Below are positions 4,717 through 12,743 of a stretch of 43,489 nucleotides of DNA, piece after piece. Both the position numbers and the translations under genes were made by a program. The notes under the pieces were generated by a model. That model searched no databases. It worked only from the letters and a program-made list of their open reading frames with translations, and was not told where the DNA came from. Source of the DNA: a virus (lineage: Duplodnaviria > Heunggongvirae > Uroviricota > Caudoviricetes); IMG/VR virus record IMGVR_UViG_2529292723_000011; one strand, written 5' to 3'. How positions within the stretch are numbered: position 1 is the first letter of the stretch; every line of letters begins with the position of its first letter.

Positions 4717-4899
4717 AACTAAGCCGCCTCGTTGAAGCGACTAAGGTATGAAATGTTGAGTTGATTTCAGCTGGTCACACCGACGTTCACGCGTCCGTTT
4801 CATCCCTCGCACTCCCCGAAGCCTGCTGAAATTCAAGCTGCGGATCTAAGCGGTCATCGCAACGGTGAATCAGGTAGTTGCCGTATCGTTGTGTTGTTG

Positions 4900-4990
4900 C
4901 GATGAACTTATTTAAAACTATAGTTGTTTTATCGTCAACAACAAAAGTTGTTTTATTGGTTGTTTTAGATATAACTGGTTGTATTTAGGA
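4900..4990 (-). promoter_or_regulatory. Putative OL/pL operator-promoter region
   Basis: AT-rich block with palindromes AACAACaaaaGTTGTT and AAAACTATAGTTGTTTT sharing the GTTGTT/AACAAC half-site with the cI-cro intergenic region; lies between the terminator of the 287-aa gene and the leftward early genes. Confidence 0.4.
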
Positions 4991-5075
4991 TGGATTTATT
5001 TTGTGACTTGCATCGCACAGCGATAACTGAAGCGAGGTCGTGGTGGTTTTTTGAACGGTTTGTGTGATGAGGGGA

Positions 5076-5105
5076 GGCAAAAGAAAACCCGGCACGACGG
5101 CCGGG
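5076..5105 (-). terminator. Rho-independent terminator immediately after the 287-aa gene
   Basis: Minus-strand reading CCCGGC-cgtcgt-GCCGGG followed by TTTTCTTTT, starting 5 nt after the stop codon at 5110-5112. Confidence 0.6.
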
Positions 5106-5109
5106 GAAA

Positions 5110-5973
5110 TCATTTCGCATCTACAATAAATAACCTGTTTATCTGGCCTTTTTTAACAGTAGCCTTTGCGGTTATAGTGAATACTGCAGATGGATCACCT
5201 TTGGTTGATATATATGCACTAAGAGCTCTAATATACGGGTTATTCTTCTTTCCTGCAGCTGGATCGCTAATTTCAGCAGTGATTCTCTTTTTTGAGTCAT
5301 CACCATCTAAAATTATTTTAGCTGTCATATTTTGTGCATCAAATTCTGTAAGAAAAGCACGATACTCACGAAGACCGAGAACTTCATCATCATCAAGCCT
5401 ATCAATTTCAGCTTTATCTCTCTCGTTAACTTTTAGAAGGCAGCCGTCAACATTTGTTGCAACACTTATCTGATCGCAAGTATTACCAATAGGTGATACT
5501 GCCTGCCTTACAGAGGGGCGAAGCTCTACAGCCATTCGGTCAATCAAAGAGATCAACTTATCAATGGTTCCAGCATCCTTGTTTCCTAGTGCCTCTATGG
5601 CCTTTTCAAGTGACTGCTGCAAAGCTTTCATTTCATCTTTCTTGTTAGAATTTCTCGCAAAAATATATTGTAGTATTGCGCCAAGTATAGTTGCGGCGAT
5701 CCCCGAGAACAACTGGTTCTGAGTGGCGAAGTTAAGAACTGCTTCAAGAGTAAAGCAGTTAGCTTTTGCTTCGCGTGCGTAAACCTTAACTTCCTGATAA
5801 TTAATGTATTTACTATATTTTTGTGTAACAGAGAAAGAAGCTGCTGTTGAGAGAACTTTAGAAAAACCCTTTAGGGATTCTCCTAGGCAGTTCAAATCTA
5901 TTTCATGATTTAAAGCATCTTTTCCGTCATACCTAAGAGAGATTTTTATATCCTGTAAAGCGTCACAATCCAT
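5110..5973 (-). CDS. Protein of unknown function (287 aa) in the Rex-equivalent position downstream of cI; candidate superinfection-exclusion or abortive-infection factor
   Basis: Start 67 bp after the cI stop on the same strand, with GAGAG upstream; visibly AT-rich relative to flanks; contains a hydrophobic stretch [19 protein letters not shown]; no similarity to RexA/RexB/SieB as recalled. Confidence 0.6.
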
Positions 5974-6039
5974 AAATCGCTCTCGTCTAATTCTAATTAA
6001 ATTTACTATCCCCTAAACGACTCATCAGCACAGTACTGA

Positions 6040-6729
6040 TTATCCATGTTTCCTGTACGTCTGGGGCATGCTCCCAATAACCTTACCGAAGATGAACACC
6101 CGGTTCATCTCGTCTTTCTCGATCGGGTCCCACGGTGAGTAGCTCTTGTTATCAGAGATAACCAGCAGCTTATCCTTCATCATTTGCAGGCGCTTTACAT
6201 GGGCTGTGTCGTCGTACAGAAACGCATAGATACCATCACCGTCGAAAGATTTAACCGTGATATCAACGAACAGCAGATCCCCTGGTTCGATCGTTCCTGA
6301 CATGCTGTCACCACGCACGTTAATGATGCGGATATTTTCCGCCTTCCTACCATCGAACATGTGACGAGCATCGTCAAACGAGTACTCAACCGAGCGTAGA
6401 ACTTCTACAAACTCACGGTTGATGACTCCCGGCCCAGCACTGACTTCTATATCAAGAACGTCAATCTTGAAGTATTTGGAATGGCTGACAGTTGATTGTA
6501 TTGGTTGCACTGTACTGTCTGACATATTTCCAACGCCAGAAGATAACCATTCTGCGCGCACACCCAAAGCGTTCGCGATCTCCACGATTTTAGTTGTTTG
6601 ATTAGCTTTCCCTGTTTCGATTTTCTGAATAGCAGCCTGGCTAACCCCGACCAAATCCCCAAGCGCCTTTTGTGTAAGGCCTCGCGCTAATCTGGCTTCT
6701 TTAAGTCTTTCTGAGAGTGTTGTTTTCAT
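6040..6729 (-). CDS. cI: CI-like prophage repressor (HTH_XRE N-domain plus LexA/S24-type autocleavage C-domain); start taken at MKTTLSERL (track ORF extends to 6795)
   Basis: N-terminal LTQKALGDLVGVSQAAIQKIETGK helix-turn-helix; Ala-Gly cleavage-site candidate in EVSAGPG; GDSM serine and VKRL lysine motifs of the S24 peptidase fold; divergent from the cro-like gene. Confidence 0.85.
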   Translation of the reverse strand: MKTTLSERLKEARLARGLTQKALGDLVGVSQAAIQKIETGKANQTTKIVEIANALGVRAEWLSSGVGNMSDSTVQPIQSTVSHSKYFKIDVLDIEVSAGPGVINREFVEVLRSVEYSFDDARHMFDGRKAENIRIINVRGDSMSGTIEPGDLLFVDITVKSFDGDGIYAFLYDDTAHVKRLQMMKDKLLVISDNKSYSPWDPIEKDEMNRVFIFGKVIGSMPQTYRKHG

Positions 6730-6833
6730 AGTCCAAATGTACAACCAAGGTTTTATTCCATCAAACGAAAATGGTTGTTGACTAAAAACAACCATAGTTT
6801 TAATCTTGATTCAAATTAACCACGGAGGTTGTT
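6730..6833. promoter_or_regulatory. Putative OR/pRM/pR divergent operator-promoter region
   Basis: 104-bp intergenic between divergent cI and cro; contains the 25-bp palindrome ATGGTTGTTgactaaaAACAACCAT (6771-6795) and AACCAAGGTT; GGAGG RBS before cro. Confidence 0.6.
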
Positions 6834-7064
6834 ATGAACCCAGCTATCAAAACAGCGATCAATATCGTTGGTTCACAAAAGAAACTGGGCGCTGCTTGCG
6901 AAGTTTCACAGCAGGCCGTCTATAAGTGGCTTCACAACAAAGCAAAGGTATCCCCTGAACATGTCGGCAGCATTGTTACGGCTACTGGTGGAGTAGTGAA
7001 GGCATACCAGATTCGCCCGGATCTTCCGAAGTTGTTTCCACACACCGAAAAGAACGCAGCTTAA
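6834..7064 (+). CDS. cro: Cro-like HTH regulator (76 aa)
   Basis: Divergent from cI; HTH segment QKKLGAACEVSQQAVYKWL. Confidence 0.75.
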   Translation: MNPAIKTAINIVGSQKKLGAACEVSQQAVYKWLHNKAKVSPEHVGSIVTATGGVVKAYQIRPDLPKLFPHTEKNAA

Positions 7065-9753: not shown

Positions 9754-10722
9754 TTATTCAATTAACGGTACTTGTTTGTTGCAGAATACTAATATTGCAT
9801 CTTGAGTAAGTTTTTTATGCATATGCTTTAGCGGCTCAATGTTAGTCTCGTAACCGAAAGTAGCGAAAAGAGTTGGTTCTATAATGAAATTTTCTTCATA
9901 AGCTTTTAGATCAAATGCTCTCTTTGCAATTAATCTAACTGCTTTCTTTCTAATGCGTGAATTATATCTATTCTCTATGCTAAGTTTAGCCATGTTTTCA
10001 TCGATGTTGTTTTTTTGTTTTTTTAGTATAATTTGAATGTGATCATCATCAATTTGGCCATCTCTATATATATAATCAATGTCATAATTAAAATCAAAAA
10101 GCTGAGTGTCATTTACACCTTCAAGAAAAGGATTTGAAAATGGGCTCATGATCGGATCGAGTGATTTTTTATAAGTACTATTGCATTTAGTGCAGCTAGG
10201 AATTAAGTTAAATAAACTAAAGGAGATCAACGGATATTTGTACTTAGGTATGAAATGATCAAATGCTGGCCTGTAGCTAGTACCTGTATGGTCTTCTACT
10301 TGTTCAATTTCTTCACTGTTGCAATATGGGCATATGCTAATGTCTAAAAAACTGTTCAATTGATACGCTGTTTCTCTATCAATAAGTGAGTATTTAAATA
10401 TTTCAGAAATATTTTTAACCCATGATGGAAATAACTTAATGGTATTTTCCTTTAAAGGACCACCATTCTTGATACTTATAAGATTAAGAATCTTATCTCT
10501 TAAACTAGATAATTTTTGTGGTGAGAAATGTGTATTTAATATATCCTCAAGTATTAGGCTTTGTGTAGTTTGAGAGAAAGATGTGATTATTTTGATGGCA
10601 TGTGCTAGTTCATTATAAACTATTTTTTTGTTTTCTTTTGTTTTTAAAGGTAATTGTAGGTTTGTTAATGGTTGTAAATTTAAGTGCCTTAAAAAATAAT
10701 CAGGAGAATAGTACTCACACAC
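9754..10722 (-). CDS. HNH (His-Me finger) motif protein, 322 aa; putative nuclease effector of a two-gene ATPase plus HNH module (Septu PtuB-like)
   Basis: Motif ICPYCNSEE...FDHFIPKYKYP...NLIPSCTKCNSTYK (CxxC, DH, N, CxxC); AT-rich; co-directional downstream of the ATPase. The only available start is GTG at 10720-10722 with a weak RBS. Confidence 0.7.
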   Translation of the reverse strand: MCEYYSPDYFLRHLNLQPLTNLQLPLKTKENKKIVYNELAHAIKIITSFSQTTQSLILEDILNTHFSPQKLSSLRDKILNLISIKNGGPLKENTIKLFPSWVKNISEIFKYSLIDRETAYQLNSFLDISICPYCNSEEIEQVEDHTGTSYRPAFDHFIPKYKYPLISFSLFNLIPSCTKCNSTYKKSLDPIMSPFSNPFLEGVNDTQLFDFNYDIDYIYRDGQIDDDHIQIILKKQKNNIDENMAKLSIENRYNSRIRKKAVRLIAKRAFDLKAYEENFIIEPTLFATFGYETNIEPLKHMHKKLTQDAILVFCNKQVPLIE

Positions 10723-10784
10723 AATTGGGTGTTTGTTGTATATTTTGATGATTATATTTTTTAATCGTTTGGGTTTTGAAAAAA

Positions 10785-10946
10785 CTAATTTTCTGATAGT
10801 TTTTTGTTGATTGTATTTAGAAACTCTACTTCATCGGGAGTAATGTTCAGTAACTTCCTCTGCTTCACGCGTTTATTAACTTTGCTTACTATTTTAGAAA
10901 AGGATATTTTTACATCAACATTGAAGTCTTTGTTTATTTTTATCAT
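10785..10946 (-). CDS. Small basic ORF (53 aa) between the ATPase and HNH genes; possible third component or a displaced N-terminus of the HNH protein
   Basis: Hand translation: ATG 10 nt after the ATPase stop gives MIKINKDFNVDVKISFSKIVSKVNKRVKQRKLLNITPDEVEFLNTINKKLSEN; below the ORF-track cutoff; different frame from the HNH ORF. Confidence 0.3.
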   Translation of the reverse strand: MIKINKDFNVDVKISFSKIVSKVNKRVKQRKLLNITPDEVEFLNTINKKLSEN

Positions 10947-10955
10947 TTTTTTTAC

Positions 10956-12743
10956 TCATTTCTCAAAAGAATCTGTTTTATCATTGTTTTTGTTTAACTT
11001 CAGATCAATAAGATTTATGAGAAGTTTATTTTTAATTTGTGATAGTATGGTTTTTTGATGTTTATTTAAATTACCGTCATCTGAGTTTTTTATTATTGAG
11101 TTTAGATAATTATGTGCGTGCTGTCCTATTGTAGCATCAATAAAAAAACCATTTATATATAATTCTGATATGGTTGCTCCGAAACCAAACTCTACTTTCT
11201 TAGTATAGGTTCCTTGATTATGATCTCTTTCAAGATATATTATATCTGATGGCAAAAAATCACTTGCGAGTATAGGGGAGTGAGTTGTAAATACTAATTG
11301 AATATTTTTACTTTGTTTATATCTTAATGTTAAATCTATAATTTCTGAAAAAATAACTCGTTGCCATTCAGGGTGTAGATATAAATCACACTCATCTAAT
11401 AATATTATAATATTTTTGCTGTTGCTATGTTCTATAGAATCATAAAGTTGATTGAAAAGGTTTAATTTTGCAAACTCTCCTGAACTAAGTGAATCCCAAC
11501 CATACTTAAATCGCGATGATACGCCATTTGGTAACCTATCAACTAATCTTATTAACTCCATAATCTGCTTTGGTTCTTCAACTGTGAAAGATAAACTATC
11601 AACTGGGTCTCTTGCTGTGTTTTCTAATATATCAGCTATATTACCTATAATGTCGGAGATATGTTCAGATAACATTTCTATTTTTGACTGAAATTTAACA
11701 TTAACGTTAAATTCATCTAAAGTCTCTAATATAGTTTTTGCTGGATCTTTTTCTTCAAGATACGCGCGACACAAGCAAAATAAATAAACAGTCTCACATA
11801 TGTCTTTAGGGATTTTTGATGTCTTGAGTAAATGCCATGTTATTGCAGGCAAAAGCATCAAGTAAATTATTTTGTGATATGAAAAGGTTGCGAGGAAATT
11901 TAATGATCTTTCTTTGTTAAAAATAATGCTAATAATAAAATCTTCATCGTAATCTATCCCATGATTGAGTATATCCACAAGTGAAATACCTAAAGAATCT
12001 AAATCACGTTCAATATATCTAGGGAGTTTATTGTTTTTAATTCTATCATTCAACGTATCAAAAAAGTATTCAATAGCTCCAAAAAGTCCTTTGTCACCAA
12101 TATCATTGTTTTTTATAATAGAATTTATTTTATATACTGGTGAGTTTTCTATTTCAAATTGAAATTTAGTATTAAGTCTTGATAAATTGTCTTTAGCCCA
12201 TGAACTGTGGTCTGAAAATGAAATTAATTGCTTGAGTAATTTCTTATTGCGTGTTTTACTGCCTTGCAAAAAATATGACAGTGATAAATCTTTAGAAATC
12301 GAATCGTTTTTTTTCTTTTTTTGTCCAACTAACATACTTTTGAGGTCGATTGTGTTATTTATCTTTATTAGATTGATTTTGTTTCTTCTAAAAAAATGTT
12401 CATTATTATCAATTAGTTCCGTTTGCATTTTGGATAATATTACAGGAGGTTTGCAATTGCTTGTGATAATTATAAGTTTATCATTTTCATTCCAGATGCT
12501 ATAACCGCTACCTTCAAAATCGTAAATAAAGCTACTAATGAAATCTAAAATTGATGACTTTCCAACACCATTTTTCCCTAAAATTAATGTACAGGGAATA
12601 TTGCTATAATAGTCACGACTTAAATCTTTCTTAGCAATTGTAAGGACGTTACCTTTATGGCTAAAGGTAAATTTACTTGAGGTGGGGAGGGACAGCTTAT
12701 TTAAACCTTTATAATTGTGGATATAAGTGTATATTAGTTCCAT
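10956..12743 (-). CDS. ABC/AAA_15-21-type ATPase, 595 aa; putative sensor/ATPase subunit (Septu PtuA-like)
   Basis: Walker A LILGKNGVGKSSILDF near the N-terminus; signature-like LSSGEF; Walker B IIILLDECDLYLHP; H-loop FTTHSP; very AT-rich; 520-bp AT-rich upstream leader (12744-13265). Confidence 0.8.
   Translation of the reverse strand: MELIYTYIHNYKGLNKLSLPTSSKFTFSHKGNVLTIAKKDLSRDYYSNIPCTLILGKNGVGKSSILDFISSFIYDFEGSGYSIWNENDKLIIITSNCKPPVILSKMQTELIDNNEHFFRRNKINLIKINNTIDLKSMLVGQKKKKNDSISKDLSLSYFLQGSKTRNKKLLKQLISFSDHSSWAKDNLSRLNTKFQFEIENSPVYKINSIIKNNDIGDKGLFGAIEYFFDTLNDRIKNNKLPRYIERDLDSLGISLVDILNHGIDYDEDFIISIIFNKERSLNFLATFSYHKIIYLMLLPAITWHLLKTSKIPKDICETVYLFCLCRAYLEEKDPAKTILETLDEFNVNVKFQSKIEMLSEHISDIIGNIADILENTARDPVDSLSFTVEEPKQIMELIRLVDRLPNGVSSRFKYGWDSLSSGEFAKLNLFNQLYDSIEHSNSKNIIILLDECDLYLHPEWQRVIFSEIIDLTLRYKQSKNIQLVFTTHSPILASDFLPSDIIYLERDHNQGTYTKKVEFGFGATISELYINGFFIDATIGQHAHNYLNSIIKNSDDGNLNKHQKTILSQIKNKLLINLIDLKLNKNNDKTDSFEK

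Follow-up and report, generated by a model that had tools for sequence, protein, structure and literature searches.

The question raised by this locus is what a gene encoding a 287-amino-acid (aa) protein is doing between the repressor gene and the leftward operators of a lambdoid Escherichia coli prophage. The prophage lies in a 43,489-nucleotide (nt) stretch of viral DNA (IMG/VR record IMGVR_UViG_2529292723_000011), hereafter the window, to whose first letter all positions refer unless another sequence is named. An earlier reading of these letters, made without database searches (the sequence-only reading), had called the product unknown and had pointed to superinfection exclusion or abortive infection as a role. 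We found that the gene is AT-rich, horizontally acquired cargo (a 'moron') in the repressor operon and that it belongs to a recognisable family of uncharacterised two-domain proteins. The explanation that we favour, with about an even chance of being right, is a defence encoded by this one gene, which would shield the lysogen from other phages through exclusion or abortive infection.

Profile and homology searches identified the protein as a true, full-length member of the DUF7946+DUF7947 / PHROG 5147 / phi80 gp40A family. Pfam assigned residues 11-191 to PF25678 (DUF7946; profile positions 1-183 of 183) with 187.2 bits against a cut-off of 27, and the C-terminal residues 201-287 to PF25679 (DUF7947) with 67.1 bits against the same cut-off. 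PHROG 5147 was matched end to end (positions 1-287 of 287; E = 1.5e-178), and the best relative in the phage collection was gene 40A of phage phi80, sequenced in 1988 (62% identity over residues 1-285, 99% of the length; tblastn E = 2e-114). The protein is therefore uncharacterised, not unrecognisable, and the label 'unknown' did not hold. The gene call itself did: the open reading frame (ORF) starts with ATG on the minus strand, both DUFs score above their cut-offs, and homologues extend from 90% down to about 20% identity, all of which marks it as a real gene.

Homologues with 80-91% identity occurred in Klebsiella, Enterobacter, and Erwinia, and those with 40-67% identity in Serratia, Raoultella, Citrobacter, Morganella, Proteus, Neisseria, and Vitreoscilla. 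A profile search recovered 495 clusters (50% identity) at E ≤ 0.001, with full-length members nearly all 270-300 aa long. Among 113 diverse members, DUF7946 was present in 113 and DUF7947 as well in 111, and a Pfam scan of these sequences found only the two DUFs and no enzymatic domain. When the N-terminal domain alone was used to look for other architectures, every full-length match again carried both DUFs, so the family offers no domain-fusion clue to function. The family motifs (Y-D-G...H, L-G-x-S-L-x-G, P-I-G-x-x-C, D-P...N-x-Y, and A-K) are all present in the window protein, at Y15, D16, G17, H23, S33, G36, P161, G163, C166, D237, P238, N245, Y247, and K270.

The N-terminal part reaches further than the family. 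Its first approximately 115 residues also matched, below threshold, two PHROGs without assigned function, other phage protein families sharing this domain have proteins of about 290 aa, and by these matches the N-terminal module is commoner than the full two-domain architecture. A weak N-terminal match to NCBIfam NF053583 ('LAPAL motif-containing putative phage structural protein'; 26.2 bits, E = 5e-6, 111 residues) was rejected as membership against the curated cut-off of 60 bits, and a literature search for 'LAPAL' gave only unrelated papers. A sequence search against all PDB chains returned nothing at E ≤ 10, a Pfam scan at E ≤ 10 gave beyond the two DUFs only one chance-level match (a formate dehydrogenase transmembrane region, E = 0.22), and we found no paper naming DUF7946 or DUF7947. 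Two database entries for the phi80 homologue differ from our reading of it: in JX871397.1 the note 'acetate kinase superfamily domain' on PHI80_46 is unsupported by Pfam and NCBIfam for its 62% identical window homologue, and in the 1988 record X13065 the gene appears as two, 40A and 40B, presumably through a frameshift error.

Comparison of the flanks revealed how the gene came to lie behind the repressor gene. In a megablast search of positions 4900-6100 against phages, some records matched both ends of the query with the middle unmatched. In the alignment with PhiR34_1, the leftward operator (OL) and promoter (pL) region was identical and the same terminator stem was present with a slightly different loop, while the 287-aa gene was replaced by about 120-150 bp of unrelated sequence. 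Similarity to PhiR34_1 returned about 30 nt inside the cI 3' end, with the right junction within the last approximately 10 cI codons. Because related phages keep cI, the terminator, and OL yet lack the gene, the gene is inserted cargo. Of 5426 complete E. coli genomes, 1761 matched part of positions 4900-6100 and 77 (1.4%), including enterotoxigenic and Shiga toxin-producing isolates, carried the gene; the slot was empty in PhiR34_1 and in many E. coli prophages sharing both flanks. The site is a variable cargo slot within the repressor operon. In E. coli W4 (L028, 1789-2507) two small, unrelated genes (89 and 146 aa) occupy it, for which Pfam gave no match at threshold.

The composition of the gene also sets it apart. 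Its GC content is 38.4% (29.5% at third codon positions, GC3), compared with 47.1% for cI (GC3 51.7%) and 53% for the Red genes bet and exo, in agreement with the AT-richness noted earlier.

On the minus strand the window runs from exo through bet, gam, a kil-like gene, and a non-coding stretch to the 287-aa gene and the cI-type repressor gene, and on the plus strand, divergent from cI, lie a cro-like gene, a YdaT/cII-like gene, and replication genes. The order of repressor, gene, terminator, and OL/pL is that of the rexA-rexB position, as had been proposed, and this arrangement is conserved for the family across distant bacteria, so that the gene would be expected to be expressed in the lysogen. 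The gene shares its strand with cI and begins 66 nt, not 67, after the cI stop codon; here the cI start was taken as annotated (6729), since a longer 251-aa ORF reaching up to 6795 would overlap the operators. The spacer carries a GAGAG Shine-Dalgarno-like motif 6 nt upstream of the ATG, and a consensus scan found neither a terminator-like nor a promoter-like site on its minus strand. A promoter of the gene's own in the spacer was accordingly rejected, the best candidate by eye being a weak TAGAAT with a poor -35 element.

The hairpin and T-run that had been placed within 5 nt of the stop codon are there, beginning 4 nt past the TGA (CCCGGC-CGUCGU-GCCGGG followed by UUUUCUUUU; fold -12.1 kcal/mol). 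They are not the gene's own, as PhiR34_1 has the same terminator directly after cI without the gene. The structure is thus the resident terminator of the immunity operon, equivalent to the one in lambda's immunity region. About 100 bp beyond it lie operator-like repeats that reappear inverted at 6760-6805, adjoining the cI start, which bears out the OL-like region suggested earlier; TTGACG followed after 17 nt by TTAAAT is a plausible candidate for pL. Relative to the operators, the 287-aa gene is on the side of the repressor, upstream of pL, and hence outside the early-left transcript.

Gene order was then compared in 26 informative contexts, drawn from a genome scan, contig look-ups of ten members (25-90% identity), and phage records. 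In 18 of them the gene lay directly downstream of a helix-turn-helix (HTH)-S24 or CI-type repressor gene on the same strand, with a divergent cro-like gene opposite; these contexts came from phi80, Klebsiella, K. aerogenes, Morganella, Erwinia, Enterobacter, Mannheimia, Neisseria, Vitreoscilla, and metagenomic contigs. In phi80, 40A fills the interval from cI to the annotated OL operators and pL. A Klebsiella member stands in a Rac-like prophage behind a 131-aa CI without an S24 domain, Morganella carries the gene behind the repressor in three different prophages, and repressor-linked copies were found at three loci in Mannheimia and in two metagenomic lineages. In the most distant member (P0150, about 25% identity) the repressor stop and the gene start overlap by 4 bp. 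One identical K. aerogenes protein follows three different S24 repressors, with differing replication modules, so the linkage is to the slot and not to one repressor.

The contexts without an adjacent repressor included a Serratia islet in which the member is flanked by AlpA and an Abi_2 gene, a metagenomic island (L023, 5917-7489) in which TIR_2 and ThsB_TIR genes directly follow it and an AAA_16 gene is also nearby, another contig with SocA_Panacea near the member, loci by transposases or integrases, and a Burkholderiaceae locus. In a prophage assigned to Helicobacter pametensis, the member lay within a one-strand gene run away from the repressor. A conserved partner gene was looked for and rejected, as downstream neighbours varied by locus and none had a Pfam match. 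Across these contexts the family behaves like a portable cassette of one gene, with the repressor operon as its preferred home and others that resemble defence or mobile islands.

Three further neighbourhoods deserve mention. In Rahnella victoriana (L005, 5398-5886) a tandem pair of DinI-like genes immediately precedes the member on the same strand, with no repressor, and may hint at SOS-linked expression. In Vitreoscilla sp. C1 (L012, 7661-9274) a 537-aa SIR2_2 gene directly follows the member in the prophage immunity region. In Erwinia sp. CGal63 (L004, 5188-5933) a Tlde1-domain gene (E = 1.4e-29) and a 71-aa hydrophobic ORF stand between the repressor and the DUF7946 gene, and the two products look like a toxin-immunity pair.

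Two predicted structural models of the window protein agreed with each other (full length, predicted local distance difference test [pLDDT] 78.6; N-terminal domain alone, pLDDT 83 and predicted template modelling score [pTM] 0.81) and indicate a soluble, cytoplasmic two-domain protein; no signal peptide or lipobox was found. The N-terminal domain is modelled as a three-stranded sheet (residues 9-14, 62-66, and 75-82) with four helices, and the C-terminal domain as an all-beta barrel with one capping helix and a pLDDT of roughly 90 in most blocks. The structure search that the sequence-only reading had proposed gave an OB-fold for the C-terminal domain and no match in the solved-structure library for the N-terminal domain, and Foldseek against viral predicted structures returned uncharacterised proteins only. 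Across the 113 sequences, the best conserved motif was I-R-Y-D-G-x-D-A-x-x-H ... L-G-x-S-L-x-G (residues 13-36), the linker P161-I-G-x-x-C166 was conserved, and the OB domain carried a conserved cluster (E210, D212, K219, R230, D237-P238, N245, Y247, and K270) of which R230, D237-P238, N245, Y247, and K270 were near-invariant. A HEPN-like R-x(4-6)-H motif at R14...H23 was rejected, its spacing being 8 residues and its setting a strand-loop region, not an all-helical domain.

The middle of the N-terminal domain, hydrophobic helix included, was variable in sequence and kept its character. The single hydrophobic segment reported earlier is present at residues 88-106 (Kyte-Doolittle 19-residue mean 1.85), and its position is kept across the family (median start at residue 88; mean of at least 1.6 in 63% of members). 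A transmembrane anchor was nonetheless rejected on the globular model of the N-terminal domain and on the insertion energies: the sequence-based Hessa estimate of apparent insertion free energy for the best 19-residue window was +1.63 kcal/mol, with a family median of +3.6 and no member at or below 0. The C-terminal domain had an isoelectric point (pI) below 7 in 95% of 112 members (median 5.0), and that of the window protein (120 residues) was 6.5. The acidity of this OB domain speaks against simple binding of DNA or RNA and in favour of a protein or cationic ligand.

The one entry in a defence catalogue that the window protein reached was the PADLOC single-gene phage defence candidate PDC-S42 (E = 1.5e-4, 19 bits; residues 9-127 against profile positions 4-113 of 302), besides which a PADLOC scan at E ≤ 10 gave nothing. 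The PDC-S42 profile, at about 300 positions, is close in length to the window protein. Similar weak matches occurred in 31 of the 113 family members (best E = 3e-8), and by these scores PDC-S42 is at most a remote sister family of DUF7946-DUF7947. We favour defence because of the Rex/BstA-type position, the coupling to a repressor whatever that repressor is, the cassette-like presence and absence, the AT-richness, the defence or mobile neighbours, and this weak link to PDC-S42; the architecture fixed across the 495 clusters with no enzymatic domain was counted on the same side.

Several results weigh against defence. Cargo genes that are not defences also occupy this slot, and a repressor is missing next to the gene in 8 of the 26 contexts. 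Co-transcription with the repressor in the lysogen is itself inferred from the anatomy of the operon and the conserved gene order. The family as such is absent from PADLOC, its match to PDC-S42 is weak and confined to residues 9-127, and for PDC-S42 we found no experimental support in the literature. Nor did we find a paper testing any family member, and the phi80 papers are silent on 40A. The protein showed no motif recognisable as catalytic or pore-forming, and the structural neighbours of both domains were uninformative; the hydrophobic helix appears too marginal for a constitutive membrane span and is not predicted to insert by itself.

If the protein does act in defence, the conserved pocket of the OB domain (R230, D237-P238, N245, Y247, and K270) might bind a ligand that appears during infection, which would more likely be a phage protein than a nucleic acid, the domain being acidic. 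The N-terminal domain, part of which is shared with PDC-S42, would then act as effector, either through exposure of the hydrophobic helix and damage to the membrane, or by sequestration, a target being held inactive. Pore-forming toxins keep a hydrophobic helix buried until triggered; the membrane-damage step is speculative, and the positive insertion energies of the helix speak against it. The division into sensor and effector and the mode of action are inferred from the predicted domain layout. A bolder version, which we consider distinctly unlikely, is that DUF7946-DUF7947 is a widespread single-protein immune module of temperate phages, a cassette placed behind any repressor, in which the helix stays latent until the OB domain captures a phage protein and the infected cell is then killed or arrested. 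One polypeptide would in that case do the job of RexA and RexB together, and phi80 gene 40A would have a function nearly forty years after it was sequenced.

Of the other explanations, cargo for host fitness or lysogenic conversion unrelated to phage defence (stress tolerance, colonisation, or competition) survives best, and we regard it as unlikely. Lambda bor and lom and prophage toxin-immunity pairs are host-benefit cargo, the repressor slot does carry varied genes (the Erwinia Tlde1-like gene with its hydrophobic ORF and the small genes of W4), and no defence-specific domain was found in the protein. However, the protein has neither signal peptide nor lipobox and is cytoplasmic according to the models, the neighbours in repressor-free contexts are mostly of the defence or mobile type (Abi_2, TIR/ThsB, SocA, and integrases) and not metabolic or virulence genes, and the profile link to PDC-S42, weak as it is, recurs.

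An accessory of lysogeny control, which would tune the RecA-stimulated self-cleavage of the repressor or sense an induction signal through the OB domain, is very unlikely. The tight linkage to HTH-S24 repressors agrees with it, as do the 4-bp overlap in the most distant member, which suggests coupled translation, and the Rahnella member behind two DinI-like genes, DinI proteins being modulators of RecA; single-stranded DNA, the signal for SOS, is also a frequent ligand of OB folds. Set against this, the same or a near-identical protein stands behind unrelated repressors, including CI proteins of 131-132 aa that have no S24 domain and are unable to self-cleave, the 8 contexts without a neighbouring repressor include some defence islands, phages with the same cI and operators manage without the gene, and 95% of family members have an acidic OB domain, which speaks against plain DNA binding.

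It is highly improbable that the product is a superinfection-exclusion protein residing constitutively in the inner membrane, where the hydrophobic segment would anchor it and it would block DNA injection in the manner for which HK97 gp15, T4 Imm, and P22 SieA are the models, although the remark on that segment in the sequence-only reading leads in this direction. The positional conservation of the hydrophobic stretch, the basic patch RNSNKK that follows it, and the name 'membrane-anchored protein YhcB' that one JGI record gives to a family member would suit such a protein, yet the insertion free energy was positive in every member tested, the N-terminal domain is confidently modelled as a compact globule with the helix inside a four-helix bundle, and such an anchor would demand either export of 86 folded N-terminal residues that have no signal peptide or a breach of the positive-inside rule. 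A role in the lytic cycle or in phage structure, for a gene lying in the early-left region by chance, is scarcely credible, as the NF053583 match is far under its cut-off, the gene is dispensable in phages with identical flanks, it lies outside the early-left transcript, and the family also occurs in non-phage islands, all of which outweigh that match and the position of the H. pametensis member.

Table 1. Features of the repressor operon and of the encoded 287-aa protein, with positions in the window
Feature	Position	Strand	Basis or remarks
Exchanged cargo segment, about 965 bp	5106..6070	minus	Alignment with PhiR34_1; partial matches in phages and E. coli genomes
DUF7946 + DUF7947 gene, phi80 gene 40A homologue	5110..5973	minus	287 aa, ATG to TGA, 31.6 kDa, pI 6.6
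N-terminal alpha/beta domain (DUF7946), codons 1-160	5494..5973	minus	Compact; predicted model
Marginally hydrophobic helix, codons 87-108	5650..5715	minus	One of four N-terminal-domain helices in the model
C-terminal OB-fold beta-barrel (DUF7947), codons 168-287	5113..5472	minus	Predicted model
cI stop-to-ATG spacer, 66 nt	5974..6039	minus	Sequence; consensus scan
cI-type prophage repressor (HTH + peptidase S24), upstream gene of the operon	6040..6729	minus	RefSeq 'S24 family peptidase', WP_000858975.1
Intrinsic terminator of the immunity operon	5079..5105	minus	6 G-C pairs, 6-nt loop, then UUUUCUUUU
OL/pL-like region	4912..4990	minus	Operator-like repeats; TTGACG, 17 nt on TTAAAT; inverted repeats, pattern search
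OR / pRM-pR-like region, cI to divergent cro-like gene	6740..6805	unassigned	Same operator-like repeats
cro-like gene	6834-7064	plus	Divergent from cI

Elsewhere in the prophage, a strongly AT-rich island on the minus strand (9754-12743; 26-31% GC, the whole window having 50%) separates replication gene P from the nin region. Its 595-aa AAA ATPase and the protein downstream matched the PADLOC two-gene candidate PDC-M62 (A, E = 4e-44; B, E = 3.5e-33) and more weakly Septu PtuA/PtuB, and by these matches the island is probably a second defence cargo of the same prophage. In its gene at 9754-10947, an A7 run near 10806 is one A shorter than in the intact 397-aa PDC-M62B-like gene of E. coli TW10828, which splits the reading frame into ORFs of 53 and 322 aa; this frameshift may be genuine, and then inactivating or phase-variable, or may have arisen in sequencing the homopolymer.

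The window begins inside an IS21-family insertion sequence (IS) element (1-347, with the C-terminus of IS100 IstB at 96-281), which abuts a truncated phage integrase gene (325-744). In TW10828 the integrase is annotated as split by IS100, and the IS end in the window is oriented oppositely; the prophage may have lost the ability to excise. The interval that separates the kil-like gene from the pL-like promoter (4717-4910) has no annotated or evident ORF for an N-like antiterminator, and an Rfam scan of the whole window gave nothing, with no put- or nut-type RNA family near pL. Related K. aerogenes prophages carry an N_peptide gene at that place.

What is new here is the recurrent repressor-slot linkage of an uncharacterised two-DUF family; immunity-region cargo genes that probably exclude phages were known already. 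The recurrence spans Enterobacterales, Pasteurellaceae, Neisseriaceae, and metagenomic contigs, holds with unrelated repressors, and extends down to about 25% identity. If the gene is a defence gene, it would represent a new family in the prophage immune repertoire, with an N-terminal domain that has no solved-structure match, and would account in part for the phage-resistance profile of those complete E. coli genomes (1.4%) that carry it. If it is not, the tight coupling to repressors would point to an accessory function in lysogeny.

Compared with known proteins and systems, the predicted OB domain resembled CusF/SilF metal chaperones, RPA/SSB/PriB, and AB5 toxin B subunits at 7-13% identity. 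No metal-binding Met/His/Trp motif was evident among the conserved residues of the family, and the domain shares the OB-fold topology of SSB, RPA, and PriB, whereas their basic binding surface has no equivalent in the acidic C-terminal domain; the conserved residues R230, D237-P238, N245, Y247, and K270 are specific to the family. Exclusion proteins of the SieB, HK97 gp15, and T4 Imm type require a bona fide transmembrane segment, which the sequence-based estimates do not predict for the window protein.

Lambda rexAB, the first known phage exclusion system, is the classical exclusion precedent in a cI operon and acts on T4 rII mutants and other phages through membrane depolarisation. The likeness to RexA/RexB is one of position, the gene lying between cI and the immunity-operon terminator upstream of OL/pL, and extends to a lower GC content than the neighbours and to the probable co-transcription with the repressor in the lysogen. 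Rex, in contrast, consists of two genes with a polytopic membrane RexB, whereas here a single gene encodes a protein with one marginal helix. As the sequence-only reading had stated, there was no resemblance to RexA, RexB, or SieB in Pfam and PADLOC scans at E ≤ 10, libraries in which we take Rex models to be present.

BstA of the Salmonella prophage BTP1 lies downstream of the repressor, is highly expressed in lysogens, ends at a Rho-independent terminator, and acts by abortive infection, and BstA genes stand behind repressors in diverse Gram-negative prophages (PMC8585504). The window gene is likewise a single gene directly downstream of a prophage repressor and followed by a terminator, and it differs in that Pfam and PADLOC detected no sequence relationship between the two.

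The closest comparison is with phi80. Its gene 40A shares with the window gene both the two-domain architecture and the slot (cI, 40A, OL operators, and pL), and differs in repressor, operators, and phage backbone. Defence by phi80 lysogens has been studied recently for TaiEcA (orf63), a different gene from 40A. As a classical phage with established genetics and a 62% identical copy of the gene, phi80 provides a cheap test system for the family.

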